DNA of 64,000 nt. It comes from Lytechinus pictus. Lineage: Eukaryota. The notes under the pieces are model-generated. The model made no database searches. It had not been told where the DNA came from and saw nothing but the letters and a program-made list of their open reading frames with translations. Shown here piece after piece: positions 8,024-59,095 of this stretch (positions are counted from its first letter, which is position 1; each line of letters starts with the position of its first letter). Location of the stretch: assembly GCF_037042905.1 (NCBI RefSeq), contig NC_087250.1, positions 23,376,001 through 23,440,000 on the forward strand, given 5' to 3'. The position numbers and the translations under genes were made by a program.

Positions 8024-8730
8024 AAAGTTTGGTCAACATTTCGTGAGATTGCAGAGGATGGGTGGTGTGCTGAGAATAGCGCTTCAAGGAGACGCCAAAT
8101 CTTCTTAGCGTCTTGGTGTGCAGTCGACCACAAAGCGACCACAGGATGTAGGATTTTTAATCTTGAGACACTAACTTAAACTGTAATTTAAGGGAGATGT
8201 GTCTATTAAAACTGGCACTGAAATGCTATACAGTGTCCCATAAGAAGGAAACTTACGTTCGTTCGTTGTTATTTTTCTCAGCATAACTAAATGATTTAAT
8301 ATATGGTGTTTACATCATTATGAAGTTCAGTTATTCTTCTTTATTTTGAATTCTTTGAACCTTCTAAGACATGAAAACATATTTGACGACTGGAATATCT
8401 ATCCTTGAAAATGTGTTTCCCCTTTTTTCTGCAACACCCTGTACAGTAAGTACATAATGTTGCCTAAGAGATGTGGTTATGCTTTAGCAGGTTAAAAGAA
8501 AAATCCTTGACTCATGACGTGGATTCAAAAATACTAACTGCTGGCAAAATACATAATCTATCAAAGTCATTTAAAATGTGTGTGGGATTTCTATTCAGAA
8601 AATATACCAAATATACCCCTCCTATATTTTTCTTTTGGGCAGTTCCATTTGATAAAGCAAATCAGGAATATACATATATAGAGAGAGAGTTCAATTTCAC
8701 AATCAATTTCATGAATGTATGACTCCATAC

Positions 8731-8998
8731 CGGTGTGTTGGCTCAGTTGGTAGAGCGTCCGTCTCACAACCGGGAGGTCGGGGGTTCAAACACCGGCCGC
8801 GTCAGACTAAAATATGTTAGAAGATGGGAGTTGCTGCTACCCTGTTTGGCGTTCAATGATTAAAGGGATAGAGCCTCGTCGATCTGGCGCTGCTCAGCAG
8901 CTGCCAGGCCCATGATCAATTGGGCAAAACAAATTTTTTGAGTATTTCATTTCATGTCTATTTCGAACAATGAAATATGGATTTTCATCTTTTTCATT
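8731..8998 (+). mobile_element. tRNA-derived SINE, family 1 (tRNA-Val(CAC)-like head)
   Basis: A box TGGCTCAGTTGG, B box GGTTCAAAC, CTCACAA loop, body, (TTTCA)-type tail; second copy at 33270-33526. Confidence 0.85.
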
Positions 8999-15527: not shown

Positions 15528-15613
15528 TCACTTACCTGATAATGAAAGTGTAGATGAGATAGATCCAGGCAGAATGGAAGGAAAAGAAAAGAAACACAAA
15601 ATATGGATTAGAA
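15528..15613 (-). other. Candidate recursive splice site (zero-length exon) RS-3, junction 15536/15535
   Basis: Minus strand reads TTCTAAT-CCATATTTTGTGTTTCTTTTCTTTTCCTTCCAT-TCTGCCTGGATCTATCTCATCTACACTTTCATTATCAG|GTAAGTGA. Branch-like A at 15608; no other AG in 15538-15624. Confidence 0.75.
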
Positions 15614-15829
15614 TAATGTAATAACTATTATTTCCTTTTTCACATCAAACGGAAGAATAAGAGGGGGTTTTTCAGATTTTTTCTAACCTTATTCTTTCTT
15701 TCTGTATTTAGCTAGCATTGTAAAAATAAAAATTGAATACGTCTTATACAACCTGATCATAATGTTTATTTAATATATCATCACTCTCATATAACTTTGC
15801 ATCGAGATGTATCTATCTCTTCTGAGGCT

Positions 15830-16060: not shown

Positions 16061-16124
16061 GAACGTATAATGTAATGTAAGTAGGTCTAGTTATGGTGTG
16101 TGCCTGTCAGCAATTGCAATTTAA

Positions 16125-16517
16125 AGGTAAATTCCAGTTCTGGTAACGATCTCAAATTGACTTTTTACAGAATCTAATATAATGACCACCCAAGTGTCTG
16201 TTTGTATAAATAAAAAATATGTGCCAAAGGATTCTGGAAGAAATTGTGTAATTGCTGAGAAATAAGCAAAATAAGCGCGGATTCGGTCACTTCCGTCGGG
16301 TCTTTATTCCAGCAATTATAATACACTGTCCCACGTGTGCCTATCTGTGTTGGCGATCTTCAGTGTGATCGTATTTCAGCTTGGATTTTATGATTTCACA
16401 AAGTTCAGTTTATGTAACTGTACCAGATCTAGATCCTCGATGATATACTGACAATTAAGCCTGGTTTACAGACTTTCTCATGAAATCAGTGTTTACTGCA
16501 ACTACTGGCATTTCTCT
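16125..16517 (+). mobile_element. Kolobok-like (TTAA-target) non-autonomous element
   Basis: TTAA|AGGTAAATTCCAG start; near-identical inverted copy at 56402-56795. Confidence 0.85.
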
Positions 16518-20523: not shown

Positions 20524-21666
20524 AAGGAGAACATTAGCAACAATCAGTTTTCCCCTCTTTTTTCATTTTGGGACTATATTCTTCATAGACAAAAGAGTAG
20601 GTTTTTTTTTCGCAATTTCATTTGCCCATCCTAATCCACCCATTAGCATGCCCCCCTACACCTCGTTTTTGCAAATTACAGGTGCTGTTACATGTTTAAT
20701 CAAGATCCAACATTTAGCAAGCAGTCATGGGTCATACATCACCGTCCCTTCTAAATTAAGAAAGGGGGGGGATAAAGCTACTATTGCATTTTCGCATGTT
20801 AACCCCTCTTCTACGACAATGACTAATGCCCTGTCTCACCAACCTTCATCTCACACATGAAAGCTTGATCAAGTGTAGCCCTAGTTACATCATGATAAAA
20901 CATTGGAAATAAGGCAATGGCATGTATCAATCGGGAGTCTGTTTGAGCTGGTGAAGCTCCACAAGAATCAGAATTCTCAGAAAAGGGCTAGACAGTGCCA
21001 ATCACACACGGCAACAGATAATCAAATGTGATCAATTAAGTATTCATAATATTGATATTAATGCCATTAAATGAAAGTCCCCTCATTGTCATATCAAACA
21101 ATGCAAAGAATTCCCCACCGACCGATGATTGATTTTTCCATTCATGCGCAACATATCCAATTTCACCTTTTCTTCCTTGATCAAAATAGTTAATTAGTGA
21201 TTGACCAAATATTGATTTTAAAATCTAATGCATGAAATGAAAAGCTTGGATTGCTGTCACTGAATTCCACATGTCGAAGGTTGATGACCTCAATCTATTG
21301 TAGTTTTCATTTGATGAGGTCATGGGACCAAAGATTCTGGCCATGTACATTTCAATTGTAGGGTTTTAGTTACAAAAGTGTTCTGGGGAAATATCAGGGG
21401 GTCTTATTGAATAGAAATAAGAAGTCGTTTGGCTGAAATAAGTAGATTGCAAACTGCAAAGTAATAACTTGCAAGAAAGAAAAGAGGGAGGAGGGGGCAT
21501 ATTCCAAAGTCCGAAACAATCAAGAAAATTATTGACCTTCTTGAGAAAAAAATAACTGAGTGATAGATTTTGATAAAATATTTATAGAATATCATATTTC
21601 AATCTTTTCCTTTCTCTCTATTTCTCCCTTTTTCCCATCTGTAGCCAGTGATTCAAACATTTCAAT

Positions 21667-22142
21667 AGGTGGTTTCAGACCGCCTCGAAGTTCGTCAGTT
21701 CCAGGTATTCTCTGATCGGGAAATTTACCCCGATCAGAAAATACCAGGTATTTTGGTAATGTGAAAGCAAACTACGCATAATTTCCCCGAAAGAAAATAC
21801 CCGCTAAATAGTAGGTACTTGGCGAAATTACGAGAACTTTCGCGGGGATTTTTCCAAGGTCGCAGGTATTTTGGCAATGTGAAAGCAATTTACGGGAACT
21901 TTTAGCCCAGCGTGTCGTTGGGCGCGGGCGCCGTGTGTGGCTGCTGGGCTAGTGGTTTTGAATCTCGCGCCTTGCCTGCTTATTAGACCATACTGCGCAT
22001 GCTCCTAACGTCAGGAATTTATCCCGAAGGGTATGTTTCGGGGCGGTCTGAATGCAGGAATAATTAATGGGTATTTTTTAGCCTAAAAATGTTCTCGTAA
22101 TTTAACGGGGATTCTTGTGATCGAGGCGGTTTGAAACCACCT
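21667..22142 (+). mobile_element. ~476-bp PIF/Harbinger-like MITE, copy 1 of 3
   Basis: TIRs AGGTGGTTTCAGACCGCCTCGA / TCGAGGCGGTTTGAAACCACCT; 3-bp TSD AAT. Confidence 0.92.
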
Positions 22143-22821
22143 AATGTATTGCATACTTTTTGTTTGTTTGTTTATTTACTGTCATACAGAATGGGTGTGA
22201 ACTGAACAAGCCATCAGCTGATTAGATTAGATAAATCAGCATCATTTTATTGTATTTGAACAAGACCATGGAGGTTTTCAAAATCAACACCTGCATCTGA
22301 AAAAAGGATTTCTAGGGAAAGACAGTCATAGAAACTAGTATTTACAGAAATTACTGATGGTCAAAGAATGTCTACAGTTGAGACAGATTATATGATTTTC
22401 TTTGTTTGTTCCACGGAGATATAATCGGCTGTAGGGCAATCAAGCCATATAAATTCCAGTGGCATTTTGACTGGACACAAATAAAAATGCTTGAGATATC
22501 TCCAAAATTGGATGACCAAATAAAATGACAAAGGGACACGAATGTTGCAAGGACAAAAATATACAATTAAAGTCTAGTTTTTGAAAAATTCTTAGAAAAA
22601 ATAATCAGCATATTTGTACATAGAATCAATCAAATAGATAAATGAACATGACCTTGATTATGTTGAATAACACTGATTTAGACAAAATTTAGTTATGAAT
22701 ATTTACTAGTATATTAAAAATCTTTCAGATGACTTCCAAAGAAATTGGATCCATGACATAATGAACTTAGGATGTGTTGAATTAGATTTGAGCAGGCATC
22801 ATTGAAAAAGAATGTAACTTA

Positions 22822-28502: not shown

Positions 28503-28596
28503 TCACTTACCTAGTTGAAGATACCATATCAAGCAGAAGAAGGCAAAGCAAATGTGTTCATGGAATAAAAGAAGAGAGAGAAAACAATCATTAATA
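28503..28596 (-). other. Candidate recursive splice site (zero-length exon) RS-2, junction 28511/28510
   Basis: Minus strand reads TATTAAT-GATTGTTTTCTCTCTCTTCTTTTATTCCAT-GAACACATTTGCTTTGCCTTCTTCTGCTTGATATGGTATCTTCAACTAG|GTAAGTGA. Branch-like A at about 28591; no other AG in 28513-28616. Confidence 0.72.
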
Positions 28597-29789
28597 TCAA
28601 TGAATGAAGAAAACAACTCTTTAAAGGAATTGAAATTTTACATATATTCAACATGCACTATACATATATTTACAATCGTGACATAACAATATACATTTGG
28701 TATATTCCAAATTTTGAAAAATACAAAAATAATGCTAAAATGACGAATATGCATGTAGTGATTTTTGAATTATTCAAATAAAATTTCTAAAACAGAAATT
28801 CATACAAATACAAAAAGTAAATCTAAGATATTTGCAAAAAAATGATAAACAATAAAATAATCAGGTATATTCCAAAATTTTGAATAGAATACAAAATACT
28901 AAAGTAATATACACAATTTTTGTGAATAATCATATAAGAAAACTATAATTCTTTAAAATGAGCAAAAATAAAGTTTATCATTAAAGATTAGTATTGGACC
29001 AAATGGAACTGGACCAACTGGGAGTATGGACTAACTAGTATTGTAGCAAATGGATGTAACCCCAAGCAGATGGCACATGAACTACAATATCACATCCTCG
29101 AATGTAATTCTGAGTTTCACATTCCTATAAACACACGCTCCCCTCTCTCTCAATATTAATAGCACACAAGAAAACTGGGATAAAGATGTTATCCTTCGAT
29201 GACCTTTCCGGGGAATCTATCAAACGATTTTCCGCCCGGCAAACGCCATTTTTTTCCACCCTTCAGTCTCCCTCCTCCCACTCTTAAGCGCATCAAAGTG
29301 ATCTGATATATCAATTTATTTCATTCCCAATCCGCTCCATCTCGAGACCACAGAAGGACAAGCGAAAAGGGGGTGAGCGGAAAGCAGAGATGTTCTATCG
29401 AAACCTTGGACGTGAATAAAGAAATGTCATGATAGTTTTAGTCGTCTTGCGATTGCTGGAGCGTGTGGCAGCTCGATTGTTGTTCTAATTAGTTAAGCAG
29501 TTTAGGCATGTGTTGGTTTTGATGAGAAATTGATGGAGTTTGATTCAGGAAGTTATTTTGGACTTGACAGTTTCATTGGTGGACTATGAAAGGCAAAAAA
29601 AAAATTTTATTGGTAGGCCTACTTGTTCTTTGACCCATTTCATTTCATGTTGCCCGAAGGTTTGAACTTAAGATGACTTTGTGAAATAATTTGAATAAAC
29701 TAATAAAAAATATGGAAAAATATCTTTCCCCTCCTTAATTTCAGATGAACTCACACTATGGTTTCTCCTATCTTCCCCAATTATTCCTT

Positions 29790-30293: not shown

Positions 30294-31671
30294 TACCCCC
30301 ACTCCTACAACCCCTCCCCTCAATTTCATTTCCTCTGACAATTAGAAAATACCAGTTCATTATATGAACTTCATTTGATACAAGGATGTAGAACAAAATA
30401 GAAACTAACGCTACAGCAGTGATCATGCCCTACATTGAATGTAATCTATAAAATCAAGCCATCTTGGCTCGAAGTCAGACAATAAACATTCATACATGAA
30501 GTGCGGAATACAACCCATCTCATGAAAGTGCAAATCTATAGGTCGACCGTCTTCATTTACAACTACGGCTATTGACTTTGAAATTTGAAATTCTCAAAAC
30601 CCTTCTAGATTTTTTGTTTCAAGGAAACGGCGGAGGAATATCGTCGAGGAAGGGGGAAAAGAGGGTGGGCTGAAAAGAAAATGAAGAAGGGGAAAGAGGA
30701 GAGTAAAGGAAGGACAAATAGATGAATCTAGGATGAAATAAAAATGAATAGAATCTCAGTATTTGATTAACAGCATAAACAAGGAAAGTATATGTATTCA
30801 TGAATAACCAAGAATCACACTTGCCGTTTGATCAGATAAACAGGAAATGAAATGAAAACTGGATATAATTTCAGTATCTGGTAAACAGACATCAAGATAA
30901 GAAAAAACAAAATACATAGGCCTATTTATAAACGCCTTAATATACAACAAACTTTCCCCACTCTCATCATATAATTTCAGTATCTGACAAAAGACAGCAT
31001 AAATAACACAAATAAAATACAGATTCACATATAGAACATGGCTAGATGAGATATATAGCAAACTTTCCCTGCTTCATCAGAACTAAATTTTGCATATTTA
31101 TCTATGATGTGGAATCAAGTTTAAAGTGACAGAAAATGCAATAAAATGTAAAAGAAAACAAGGCAGAGGAAAATAAGAAGGACCCCCCCCCCCTCCCCTA
31201 AAAAACGGACTTACTGCACATAACATACAATGGAAGTCAAAGAACAGAAATGCAAACATACCGAAGGGACACAGGAGTAGAGGAGTGATTCTGAGTAAAA
31301 GTAGGAAGTTTGAGTGAAGAAAACAGAGGGGTTGGATTCACTCCTATTTGATTTGCTCTTGAAAATCAGAGTATTTGTACCGACTTCATGATACACTACA
31401 CTGATGGGAGTCAGACCCAGGCTTCACAAAACATTAAGGAACATTCTCTCAGTTCAATCAGATGATTTAAAAAAAATAGAGCACTACCTTCTTATCTCTT
31501 TCTTTTGATTAAAATATGAATTGGAAAAAAAATTAAATTTTGAATAAATTACTTTAACTGCTTGATGAATGATTCCAAATAATTTTTATTAAAACTAAAA
31601 TACTGCTCTTCTCAGTTTACTAGTTCAAAAACGAAATTTAGTTTAATGACTAGATCTACTGGGTTAGACTG

Positions 31672-31883
31672 CACTCTTTAAACAAATCAATCAAACTGAC
31701 TAGTTAATGGGGTCAGTAGGGTGAAACTGTTATTTTTAGTCATATTTGACTATTTTATAGTAGCATTTTACTAGAACAGAGTTATCTCGGACTTAAAATA
31801 TGCATCATAAATGTGACTAGACATATCAGTTGCAGCCTGCTGACTACTTACCTAGTCAGTTTGACTGATATGTCTTAAGAGTG
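31672..31883. mobile_element. CACTCTTAA-type MITE, full length
   Basis: TIRs CACTCTTTAAACAAATCAATCAAACTGACTAG / CTAGTCAGTTTGACTGATATGTCTTAAGAGTG. Confidence 0.88.
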
Positions 31884-33269: not shown

Positions 33270-33526
33270 ATGAAATGAAAATCCATATTTTATTGTTTGA
33301 AATAGAAATCTGAAATAGAAAATTTGTTTTGCCCAATTGATTGTAGGCCCAGCAGCCACTGTGCAGCGCCTGATCGACGAGGCTCTATACCTTTGATTGT
33401 TGAACGCCAAACAGGGTAGCAGCAACTCCCATCTTAATAATGTCTTCTGGTCTGACGTGGCCGGGGTTTGAACCCCCTACCTCCCGGTTGTGAGATGGAT
33501 GCTCAACCAACTGAGCCAACACACCG
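33270..33526 (-). mobile_element. tRNA-derived SINE, family 1
   Basis: Reverse-complement homolog of 8731-8998. Confidence 0.85.
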
Positions 33527-48848: not shown

Positions 48849-48981
48849 CATCTAATTCTCACAATTGACTGACCAATTGAACTAGAGATTAATCATACCT
48901 CATTATCAAAAGCATTATTAATTTCCTTTATGAATGCACAACTGATAATGGATGCCTTTTGATTCCCTGAGGAGAATATAT

Positions 48982-49456
48982 AGGTGGTTTCAAACCGCCT
49001 CGATCACAAGAATCCCCGGTAAATTACGAGAACATTTTTAGGCTAAAATATACCTATTAATTATTCCTGCATTCAGACCGCCCCCAAACATACACTTCGG
49101 GATAAATTCCTGAAGTTAGGAGCATGCGCAGTATGGTCTAATAAGCAGGCAAGGCGCGAGATTCAAAACTACTAGCCCAGCAGCCACCCACGGCGCCGCA
49201 CCCAACGACACGCTGGGCTAAAAGTTCCTGTAATTTGCTTTCACATCGCCAAAATACCTGCGACCTTGTCAAAATCCCCGCGAAAGTTCTCGTAATTTCG
49301 CCAAGTACCTACTATTTAGCGGGTATTTTCTTTCGGGGAAATTACGCGTAGTTTGCTTTCACATTACCAAAATACCTGGTATTTTCTGATCGGGGTAAAT
49401 TTCCCGATCAGAGAATACCTGGAACTGACGAACTTCGAAGCGGTCTGAAACCACCT
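48982..49456 (-). mobile_element. ~476-bp PIF/Harbinger-like MITE, copy 2 of 3
   Basis: Reverse complement of 21667-22142; flanked by a 34-35-bp direct duplication. Confidence 0.92.
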
Positions 49457-50259
49457 AATGGATGCCTTTGATTCCCTGAGGAGAAGATATGAGAATCATT
49501 ACCAAGCTACATTAGGCATTCAAGAGATGAGCCCTGGTGCATCTCAACTCTCAAGTGTGATAGTATGGTGCAAAGAGGTTTAAAGGGGAGCAGCGAAATC
49601 ATTTGATTCAATTCAAATCACCTATAAGCTTAATGCTCTATGAGATATTTGCAGTAGATCTGATCTCAAGTATATTTGTATATCAAAAGGCTTATTTATA
49701 GTGCTCGCATTGGTTTGATGCTATTCCATTTCTATATTACCAAGTCATATATTTATCAATTTCTACTTTTTATACTATAAAATTATTATTATGACCAAGT
49801 TGTTCATTTCTCTTTACTATGTTAATTTCAATTATGTGACAATACAACACATATTGATTATAATTACTGGTTAGGGTACACAAAATCATTTACTACTGGT
49901 ATGAATTATGAATTGAAAGTAGACTAAAACAAACTTGATACTTGAAGAATTTACATGCCAACATTTTATATTCTGAAAATTGCCCTCACAGGATGAAGCA
50001 TTAGCGCCAATGAAGAGAGTTCACACTTCACATTTGCATTGTATTGCTACACAATCAAAACATAGTATACTAGTAAATGTGAACGAGCTCAGTCACATAT
50101 CAATGAGTGATATACAACATCACATAATGTGGCAATTAAGAATATGAATCATTACAAATGATGAATAAACTATGAGTGCCCCTCTAAAGCTCATCAACGC
50201 ATCCATTCCCTATCTTTACACCAATGCCTTGCAATCTCAACACCAATGCCTCGTTTAGT

Positions 50260-55024: not shown

Positions 55025-55192
55025 ACGACCAAAAACCTGCTCAATGCAATATAGTTGAATATTCTTGATTAAACTGTAAGTGTTAAAAGATAGTTTGTGA
55101 ATTTCAAAATATTGCAAAAGAACAGGACTTTTGGAAATCTGCTCTTTCTGTATAAAAGGAATTCTTGAAATTTATAGATGCATTTACTCAAA

Positions 55193-55670
55193 AGGTGGTT
55201 TCAGAACGCCTCGAAGTTCGCCAGTTCCAGGTATTCTCTGATCGGGAAATTTACCCCGATCAGAAAATACCAGGTATTTTGGCGGTGTGAAAGCAAACTA
55301 CGCGTAATATCCCCGAAAGAAAATACCCGATAAATAGTAGGTACTTGGCGAAATTACGAGAACTTTCGCGGGGATTTTTCCAAGGTCGTGGGTATTTTGG
55401 CGGTCTGAAAGCAAATTACGGGAACTTTTAGCCCAGCGTGTCGTTGGGTGCGGCGCCGTGCATGGGTTGCTGCTGGGCTAGTGATTTTGAATTTCGCGCC
55501 TTGCTGCTTATCAGACCATACTGCGCATGCTCGTAACTTCAGGAACTTATCCCGAAGGGTATGTTTCAGGGCGGTGTGAATGCAGGAATAATTAATGGGT
55601 ATTTTTCAGCCTAAAAAAGTTCTTGTAATTTAACGGGGATTCTTGTGATCGAGGCGGTTTGAAACCACCT
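55193..55670 (+). mobile_element. ~476-bp PIF/Harbinger-like MITE, copy 3 of 3
   Basis: Same TIRs as 21667-22142; 3-bp TSD AAA. Confidence 0.92.
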
Positions 55671-55797
55671 AAAGAGTGATCAGCGATCCTACTCGGAGAG
55701 GGGGGGGGAGGGTCATTTCAACATTAATCTAACTAGTTGTAACTGAACTTTATGGGGAGGGGGAGGGCTCAAGACGGGGAAAAAAGTTTTAGAACAA

Positions 55798-55886
55798 TCA
55801 CTTACCTAATGAATGCAAACAGATTGAGTAGAAGCGGCAGTACAGCAATATGAAAAGAAGAGAGAAAAAATGAAATTGAGTTAGAA
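55798..55886 (-). other. Candidate recursive splice site (zero-length exon) RS-1, junction 55806/55805
   Basis: Minus strand reads TTCTAAC-TCAATTTCATTTTTTCTCTCTTCTTTTCAT-ATTGCTGTACTGCCGCTTCTACTCAATCTGTTTGCATTCATTAG|GTAAGTGA. Branch-like A at 55881; no other AG in 55808-55926. Confidence 0.75.
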
Positions 55887-56401
55887 ATATAAATAAAGAT
55901 AATCAACAAATAATATATTTTCATTTCTCATGAAAAAAATGAAAATCAAAATGTTCAATACAAAACCACTAATCCAGTACGATCTTAAGAAATAGATTTG
56001 GTTACTTTCGAGAGCTTGGGAAAACAGAGGGAATATTGAGAATGGTTGGTCATTTATGACTTTCAGAAAATAATTATTGCGGAACAAATAAAATATTAAT
56101 CTGTTTCACCACCCTACATCACATCAAAGGCAAGCTTTTTTTCTCAATATAATTCAATATAAATGAACAAACAAAATCACACCTCATACTGTGTCCTATA
56201 ATAATTGTATAATATGTTACACCTTACAAGGCAACTTCTCTATGTGTATCTCCTTTACATAACAGTATTAATATTATCAATCATTAGATTGAAATGTTTA
56301 CACAATAGAGCAATATAAAATATAGTTTTTATGATATATAGAATGGTTACAATGTGGGTGTACATATTTTGCTACCAGGGTGTAAGAGGCCACTTCTTTA
56401 A

Positions 56402-56795
56402 AGCTAAATGAACGTAGTTGCAGTAAAACACTGATTTCGTCAGAAAGTCTGTAAAACCAAGGTAAAGTATTGATATATCATCGTGGATCTAGATCTGGTA
56501 CAGTTACATAAACTGAACTTTGTGAAATCATAATATCTAGTTAAAAAACGATCACACTGAAGATCGCCAACACAGATAGGCACACGTGGGACAGTGTATT
56601 ATTATTGCTGGAATAAAGATCCGACGGAAGTGACCGAATCCGCGCTTATTTTGCTTATTTCTCAGCAATTACACAATTTCTTCCAGAATCCTTTGGCACA
56701 TATTTTTTATTCATACAAACAGACACTTTGGTGATCATTATATTAAATTCTGTAAAAAGTCATTTTGAGATCGTTCCCAAAACTGGAATTTACCT
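56402..56795 (-). mobile_element. Kolobok-like (TTAA-target) non-autonomous element
   Basis: TTAA|AGCTAAAT ... ATTTACCT|TTAA; inverted copy of 16125-16517. Confidence 0.88.
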
Positions 56796-58426
56796 TTAAG
56801 CTACAAAACTTTTTTTCATTTCTCTCGGTCGAAAAAGGTGAAATATTCAGAATTGAGAATAAGCTGTTATTCTAGATGAATAGTTTAGAATGGTTACAAA
56901 GGGGGATGATATGCCAAGCAGGTTTTTGCGTGATTTTGAAGGCTTTGTTGAAACCAGCATGAGATATAGCATATCATATCCCCTCCGCTGTGCTGTACAA
57001 TAGTATTGTATGATACGCGGATGGAGAGGGTCACATGGGCTCATTCAGATGGGGAAAATAATCACAAATGCGGTACAAGAATAGTTAGTTTTTAAAGCAT
57101 GCTTAGATTTAGTATGCAATTTTCATCATCTGGTACCTGTTTAATTTAATTAAGTTAAAAATATTGTAACTTTGCCTATTTGGTAACTACCATGACAACC
57201 TTGATTGTGATTGGCTGCTGAGAAATGTTACCATGGTAATTAATAGCAAAAATGGAAAAGTTATCGTAATCATTAGTCTTTATGAGGCTGGCTCCGAAAC
57301 ACAATAAAATTTGTCACTGTTTTGTTATATGTTCTGTGAGTATTTTACAAATATGAATTTTAAAAAATGATGAATCTTTCAAGTCAACATTTAGTTAACA
57401 TTTTCCAATAGTCTAAATAGGCTTTAAATACGTTTGAACAAAGTATACATGTCAGTGCGGATGAATGGTAAAATAAGACTGTGTGCCAAAGCGGAAGATA
57501 TTACATTATTTCTTCCCGAGCGATAAAAGAGAATTAAAAATAATAAAACGTGAGAGAGATATATGCGTAGGAGATTGCGAGATCGTTGGAGGGTCGTTGG
57601 TGGATTGGCAATTCTTCCACTTGGTTGACCCGTAAAGCAAAGGCTTGCTGCAGAGAGCAGAAGTAGATGTTAACCTTGTAGAGTGGCAAGAGGCATTGGG
57701 GGTCGCATGACATCTATGACCACTCTCGTCTCGTATATAGATCTCAACGACGCTTTTGAGGTGAACCGCGAGTCAGCGTGGAATAAATTACATTGTGTTT
57801 TGATTGGTAAAAGAAATGAAAACATTTCGGTGCTATAGTGTGGCTTTAATGATGTTAGTTTTGCAATATTATTTTGTTGAGTGGTTATTGAAGGAATGGG
57901 TTGTCAATAACGATTGATTTCATATGGGGAAATGTCATGATGGGTGAAGCTTAGTGCTGTAAGAGTATCGGGTTAATGCTGTTTATTTAAAGAAGTTAAG
58001 CTGTCATATAAAAGTACTGATTAAAGTTTGATTATTGCAATGACAGGTGGACACAGCAAAATTGTTGAGAAGAATCCTCATCTAATGATATACATTATGC
58101 AGTGTACTAAAAAAGTTACAACTTAGAAATCAAACCGTTATCCTCAGAATCACAGTCATTAAAAGTAGATTGAGACACGGATTAGTACATGTACATATAG
58201 GATATTTTAGAGAGATTATGGGCTAACTTACAAAAAAAAATAGAATAAAAAATAAGGAGCATTCACATTCCTTTCCTCTTTTCTTCCAGGCAATATGCAC
58301 TCTCAATTCAATTCCTCTCTGCTAAAAATTACCACTCTTCTCTTCGTATACAAATATATCGCAGATCAATAGATGTTGTTGTTCATATTGTCTTGTGAAC
58401 TTGAATTAATTCAATCTAAATAGATC

Positions 58427-59095
58427 CTAACCCTGCACCGCAATGTGCAGCAATTGATCAAAGAACTGGGCCCAGTCTTACAAAGAGTTACGATTGATCC
58501 AATCAATCACAAGTATGGAAAGCCTTGAATGTCAACATCTGGGCCCTGTCTTGCTAAGAGTTACTTTTGATCCAATCAATCGTAACTCTATGAAAATCCA
58601 TCAGTGTCATAATTTTTCTACAGAAAATTTGCAACATGTTCTTTGTAAACAAAGGAAAACACACAAAAATTGTCAAGAAATCTATGACTTTATGGATATA
58701 CATTCATATCTAGAAATTTTTTTGAACAAACATGCATTTCGTGTTTTCTTTGCTGGCTTTCCATAGTTGCAATTGATCGGATTAATCGCAACTCTTTGTA
58801 AGATGGGCCCCTGAAATGCGAATTTGTTCAAAATATTTTCTATGATGTAGTCATACATGGTTTTCTTGAAAATTCAGTGTGCTTCTTTTTGTTTACAAGA
58901 CATTTTTTAACTTTCTTATAGAGAAAATATTATTACAATACTGTATTTCCACAGAATTGCGATTGATCGGATCAATCGTAACTCTTTGTAAGACGGGGCC
59001 CAGATTTTTGCGATTGATCATACATGATAATTCATGCAACCAATCGTAGAAATCAGACCGATTATCAATCGCTAAGCTTTAAGTAACAGGGTCTG
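58427..59095. mobile_element. Triple-nested MITE cluster
   Basis: Outer short MITE (58427-58468 + 59004-59095) contains a GGGCCC MITE (58469-59000), which contains an inverted copy of its own family (58542-58810, CTG TSD). Confidence 0.85.

Follow-up and report, generated by a model that had tools for sequence, protein, structure and literature searches.

Background

Do true zero-nucleotide recursive splice sites exist, or is a hidden exon always needed? Tests in flies and vertebrates speak for the hidden exon, and use of acceptor and donor signals at the same time has been assumed to be sterically barred; a 2026 preprint (10.64898/2026.04.13.717821), in its accessible part, holds that recursive splicing may start by exon or by intron definition. 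The question bears on a candidate recursive splice site, RS-1, on the minus strand of the Lytechinus pictus DNA analysed here (the window, a stretch of 64,000 nt), where an acceptor is fused directly to a near-perfect donor and two sister sites, RS-2 and RS-3, share the same orientation. The computed enrichment of such sites in large sea-urchin introns is already in print (Shepard 2009, PMC2773006). According to Table 2 of the portion available to us, sea-urchin introns longer than 50 kb hold 8.2 times more of them than the antisense strand. The sites in the window belong to the same motif class and are likewise strand-biased, but the genome-wide count given in that portion is 0.54 per 100 kb, against three in 64 kb here. 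A literature search that left subscription papers outside its scope returned no paper that treats individual echinoderm sites or reports natural ratchet points with microexon-like spacing.

Results

RS-1 reads TAG/GTAAGTGA (55798..55808, minus strand), with the AG at 55807-55806, GTAAGTGA following directly at 55805-55798, and the junction between 55806 and 55805. Its own donor scores 96 of 100; all donor scores reported here come from an approximate matrix scaled to 100. Positions are counted with the G of the AG as -1. The acceptor is preceded by an AG-free zone of 119 nt (55808..55926), the preceding AG ending at 55927. Within this zone lies a predicted distal branch motif, TTCTAAC (55880..55886, with the A at 55881, or -76), which is the best U2-pairing candidate in -10..-124 and has a score that is equalled or beaten in 4.6% of random -60..-90 windows. 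A fair second motif, TACTCAA (55824..55830, with the A at 55825, or -20), ranks next, so the branch position of RS-1 is a prediction. The uninterrupted pyrimidine run is 19 nt long and includes CTCTCT (55852..55870, -65..-47), ending 47 nt before the junction, and 95% of it is unpaired in the predicted fold; the best 25-nt window, 55874-55850 (-69..-45), contains 23/25 pyrimidines. The spacer that follows (55815..55847) holds three TGC motifs at 55847-55845, 55839-55837 and 55817-55815, starting at -42, -34 and -12. The original prediction had described the fused site, the branch motif, the U/C tract, the three TGC motifs and the 119-nt zone, and all were recovered at their positions, the -75 that it gave for the branch A differing from our -76 by counting convention. 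Folding of the sequence around RS-1 gave no structure bringing the branch motif and the AG together, and the RS-1 DNA is without a second copy elsewhere in the window. The AG that bounds the zone (55928-55927) sits at the apex of an AU-rich hairpin predicted for 55954-55917 of the minus strand.

The two sister sites are on the same strand. RS-2, also TAG/GTAAGTGA (28503..28616, G of the AG at 28511), has a 104-nt AG-free zone, three TGC motifs, a branch candidate TATTAAT with its A at 28591 and an 18-nt pyrimidine run at 28584-28567. RS-3, CAG/GTAAGTGA (15528..15624, G of the AG at 15536), has an 87-nt zone, one TGC, a branch candidate TTCTAAT with its A at 15608 and a 19-nt run at 15594-15576. 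RS-1 and RS-2 are 27,295 nt apart, and RS-2 and RS-3 12,975 nt. The minus strand contains 3533 AGs, of which five are followed by GTAAGT, 53 have an AG-free zone of at least 80 nt, and three have both (hypergeometric p 3e-5, an optimistic value, as are the other p-values, since the thresholds were set after the sites were seen). On the plus strand, none of the 3578 AGs combines the two. This strand-biased excess of 3 against 0, like the fused YAG/GTRAG acceptor-donor seen at RS-1, is a property of ratchet points. The mean number of such sites was 0.013 in one set of 150 block-wise dinucleotide shuffles and 0.0 in a second set of 150, compared with three observed, and AGGTAAGTGA was seen three times where 0.04-0.06 were expected per strand. 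When compared with all 41 AG/GT sites on both strands that have an AG-free zone of at least 40 nt, the RS sites have the top three donor scores (96, 96 and 100; the next is 90) and also take the first three places in pyrimidine-run length (19, 18 and 19 nt; the next is 15). One other TAG/GTAAGT on the minus strand, at 31852, is without an AG-free zone and sits inside a palindromic repeat (31672-31883).

The three sites also share a geometry. In each of them the top-scoring branch candidate lies far upstream (-76, -81 and -73 at RS-1, RS-2 and RS-3), with scores reached by 4.6, 4.6 and 14.6% of random windows, and the pyrimidine runs end at -47, -57 and -41. A run of at least 18 pyrimidines ending at -35..-60 is found at 3/3 RS sites, at 7/101 other AGs whose AG-free zone measures at least 80 nt, which served as controls, and at 28/7095 other AGs. 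Close to the acceptor, the 17 nt before the AG (-4..-20) are 65, 53 and 71% pyrimidine; at no site does a run of 12 or more pyrimidines reach to within 12 nt of the junction, and the strong proximal tract of fly-type ratchet points is missing at all three. Three TGC motifs in the last 50 nt occur at RS-1 and RS-2 and at 0/101 controls, while RS-3 has one. The four marks of exons that depend on the eMIC, namely a long AG-free zone, a distal UC-rich tract, CUAAY and UGC near the acceptor, are all present at RS-1; RS-2 is without a strict CTAAY, and RS-3 has its single TGC. An included exon of at least 3 nt, as in an eMIC microexon, is not found at RS-1: the donor follows the AG directly, and there is no other AG within 119 nt.

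At 135 nt downstream of the RS-1 junction, in agreement with the original prediction, lies a MITE of 478 nt (55193..55670) with terminal inverted repeats AGGTGG...CCACCT and a TTT target duplication at 55673-55671 and 55192-55190. Its description as young is fair, two other copies (near 21646-22143 and 48981-49478) showing 92-95% identity, though the age itself is undated. The copy near 49 kb is bordered by a 36-nt direct repeat (48946-48981 and 49456-49490, 94% alike), not by a clean 3-nt duplication. The donors downstream of RS-1 that could close a cryptic exon (55668..55733, minus strand) are weak: cta/GTTAGA with its GT at 55733 (+72) and cga/GTAGGA at 55692 (+113) both score 64, and tag/GTGGTT at 55668 (+137), created by the MITE's own end, scores 69. 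The first donor of at least 70 is found at +551. The earlier remark that no strong donor precedes the MITE holds as a description (best 64, where the site's own donor reaches 96) but not as something unusual, since a donor of at least 70 within 135 nt is also missing at 57% of random minus-strand positions. By arithmetic, tga/GTAAAT (55182..55190, GT at 55187, minus strand, score 63) stood at +137 before the insertion, which therefore cost the site no strong donor within about 500 nt; the pre-insertion sequence has no donor reaching 70 out to about +510. Because of the 57% background and this former donor of 63, the MITE is uninformative on whether a cryptic exon is needed, and the argument from its proximity that none would be needed fails, weak donors being available at +72, +113 and +137.

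Across the three sites, the best donors at +20..+100 score 64, 53 and 69 (background percentiles 0.42, 0.11 and 0.66 for RS-1, RS-2 and RS-3), and those at +10..+135 fall at percentiles 0.27, 0.72 and 0.83, with RS-2 having a donor of 74 at +126 and RS-3 one of 77 at +131. GC-type donors within +250 of the three sites gave no match. There is no excess of donors close downstream at the three sites, a number too small to exclude one. For a donor about 50 nt downstream, as at fly-type sites, RS-1 offers the three weak ones at background level.

The surrounding DNA is repeat-rich, with a G+C content of 31-41% per 2 kb across the window. Among the minus-strand stop-to-stop frames of at least 55 aa (150 in total, 13 of low complexity left out), 0/137 had a Pfam match above the cut-off and 1/137 matched below it; the exons flanking the putative intron of RS-1 would lie outside the window. 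If RS-1 is used, the junction expected in RNA is exon/GTAAGTGATTG. A search of sequencing runs found no RNA run containing the RS-1 region (best word share 0.12), and a 26-nt exact pattern across the RS-1 junction had 0 matches in metagenome contigs. Four of the 24 listed runs (two of raw RNA and two contig sets, possibly from other species) were compared with 55640-58450. Depth was observed on repeats only, most matched raw RNA reads were less than 95% alike, and every bin wholly within 55734-56297 had zero depth, which, given that the runs may come from other species, says nothing about the use of RS-1.

Discussion

Our preferred reading, with a probability of roughly 70%, takes RS-1 for an intronic recursive splice site, or ratchet point, in a giant minus-strand intron. 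The reading draws on the strand bias of 3 against 0, the common spacing and a surrounding sequence in which no coding frame is recognisable. The original prediction of a recursive splice site draws its support from sequence statistics and none from RNA. In a first step, the upstream exon would be joined to the AG at 55806 by way of the far-upstream branch A at 55881 and the adjacent pyrimidine run, and the AG-free spacer would leave the first AG downstream of the branch to be chosen; AG choice by scanning from a distant branch point is described in the accessible part of PMC1431707. In a second step, the join would rebuild a strong donor, exon/GTAAGTGA, which would splice on to RS-2, 27.3 kb further on, and then to RS-3 after another 13.0 kb, so that the mRNA would keep nothing of the sites. 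Against the ratchet reading stand the 53-71% pyrimidine before the AG, weak beside fly ratchet points, the usable-looking branch motif at -20 of RS-1, and the small sample, n=3 with features picked after looking. Judged from its sequence, RS-1 is a real, non-random candidate that is ratchet-like yet without the proximal tract of fly sites, and that, for want of an exon, does not count as a microexon.

The intronic ratchet points of Drosophila (kuz, Ubx and Bx; Duff 2015, Pai 2018, Joseph 2018/2021) resemble the RS sites in their YAG/GTAAGT with a near-perfect donor and in forming several co-oriented sites, here 13-27 kb apart, in a very long stretch without coding frames. They differ in where the acceptor signals lie. 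The U/C tract abuts the AG in 47/47 fly rows judged by eye (PMC6110457 S1 Table; part 1 of 11, 47 of 539 rows, and biased because these are rows of high motif score), and the three of seven lariats that end at a site have branches 20, 29 and 31 nt upstream (PMC6110457 S2 Table). At the RS sites, by contrast, the tract stops 41-57 nt short of the junction, and the best branch motif is 73-81 nt upstream of it. The human lariat searches described in the accessible text of PMC10156609 dropped branch distances outside 10-60 nt, so a geometry of the RS type would be missed by them. A distal arrangement is known from acceptors with distant branch points (more than 40 nt upstream) and AG exclusion zones (Gooding 2006, PMC1431707); in the part of that report available, the branch and tract also lie in an AG-free zone and the predicted acceptor is the first AG downstream, but real and often alternative exons follow, whereas at RS-1 a donor comes immediately after the AG. 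RS-1 would belong to this class with its predicted branch at -76, but not with the rival at -20.

Within the ratchet reading, the probability divides about evenly between two ways of recognising the acceptor. One, as for a 0-nt microexon, would rely on the site's own donor together with the distal tract; the other, the fly route, would rely on a weak donor lying downstream. Under the first, which we put forward tentatively, U1 would bind the site's own GTAAGTGA and U2AF/U2 would bind 45-80 nt upstream, no downstream cryptic exon being required, possibly with help from Srrm2/3/4 (eMIC) through the TGC motifs. The closest parallel is the 4-nt exon 2 of human MPC1 (PMC9929638), which in the available text of that study has its branch at -68/-64 and 22/25 pyrimidines at -67..-43. 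The geometry of RS-1 is nearly equal to it, the two having in common a branch at about -65 to -76 (predicted for RS-1), 22-23/25 pyrimidines at about -68..-44, a TG-containing spacer and a strong donor at the acceptor. The same text reports that in minigenes 67 nt upstream and a 6-nt donor were enough for the 4-nt exon, that mutation of the donor led to skipping, and that a 0-nt version still made both lariats, that is, still spliced in two steps. MPC1 differs in being a real 4-nt coding exon whose 0-nt form was engineered, where the RS sites would be natural 0-nt sites, three in a row. The suggestion that RS-1 may need no cryptic exon, whose reasoning from the MITE falls, is better supported by the distal branch motif and tract at 3/3 sites and by the MPC1 0-nt experiment. 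It also agrees with the fly sites being built differently and with no RS site having a donor of at least 70 at +20..+100.

The eMIC marks at RS-1 point the same way. Long AG-free zones, UGC near the acceptor, UCUC-rich tracts and CUAAY are listed for eMIC-dependent exons in the accessible sections of PMC8797185, and RS-1 resembles the neural microexons controlled by SRRM3/4 and Srrm234 in all of these. The exons in those sections are included ones, with a median length of 31 nt in flies; their introns are short and, in flies, their donors weak. RS-1, in contrast, has no exon, a huge putative intron and a near-perfect donor, and its dependence on the eMIC would be a conjecture. Self-definition is weakened by several further points. 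The MPC1 0-nt construct was an artificial one in which the lariat starting at the site still came from the native downstream intron, and the test of a minimal 6-nt donor used the 4-nt exon. The fly rows compared are biased towards proximal tracts by their high motif scores, the comparison has no ordinary acceptors of the same genome as a control, and RS-3 has only one TGC. Pai 2018, in the part available to us, takes simultaneous use of both signals as sterically barred.

Definition of the acceptor across a short cryptic exon, ending at the weak donor at +72, +113 or +137 and then skipped as RS-1's own donor wins, is possible to the same degree. It is the mechanism tested in Drosophila, where, according to the accessible part of PMC8605326, ratchet points need a cryptic exon and such exons are about 50 nt long. 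Candidate donors are present at RS-1 and, somewhat stronger, at RS-2 (+126) and RS-3 (+131). A donor stood at +137 of RS-1 both before and after the MITE insertion, and the ends of the element can pair (-32.9 kcal/mol), which could loop it out. Against this route, the RS-1 donors are at background level (percentiles 0.27-0.42) with none of at least 70 until +551, and the upstream shift of tract and branch motif at 3/3 sites is left unexplained.

Outside the ratchet reading, RS-1 could be a chance motif or an unused relic in AT-rich, repeat-rich DNA. The thresholds being post hoc and the further AG/GTAAGT at 31852 lying within a repeat speak for this; the strand bias and the joint statistics speak against it and make it improbable. 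The least likely reading, that GTAAGT serves as donor to an ordinary exon of rare or poison type (121 nt, 55926-55806, with the GAG as acceptor, or else a GTAA microexon of 4 nt), can call on a U-rich tract before the GAG at 55927, one frame of the 121 nt without a stop and an aa/GTGA at +4 in all three RS sites, but GAG is a poor acceptor, the 121-nt segment is 26% G+C, is not a multiple of three and holds the branch motif and tract, RS-2 and RS-3 are without a tract before their upstream AG, and the +4 donor scores 62-67 against 96-100.

The spacing of the RS sites is the one that allows a human microexon to splice even at 0 nt. That natural zero-length microexons remove giant introns here, as self-defined ratchet points with U1 on their own donor and maybe switched by the eMIC, is a proposal we regard as rather doubtful. 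If true, recursive splicing would have a second route, separate from the cryptic-exon one of flies and vertebrates, and would be linked to the control and the birth of microexons.

Other features of the window

A possible 18-nt exon lies at 10306-10289 of the minus strand, with a CAG acceptor after a 73-nt AG-free zone, a GAG/GTAAGT donor scoring 97 and a stop in one of the three frames. It is the only such microexon-like match on the minus strand; the plus strand has three weaker ones. At 31214, also on the minus strand, TGTGCAGTAAGT follows a 75-nt pyrimidine-rich AG-free zone, with acceptor and donor sharing one G, so that the site is ratchet-like but one base short; the plus strand has a comparable overlap at 8446, and the one at 31214 may therefore be due to chance. 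The Rfam search of the window returned only one weak tRNA-like match, at 8732-8795, which opens the first copy of a repeat pair (8731-8988 and 33275-33526, 85%) that is probably a tRNA-derived SINE. An interspersed repeat at 56406-56799, 600 nt upstream of RS-1, is 92% identical to 16121-16513 and attracts thousands of RNA reads from elsewhere.
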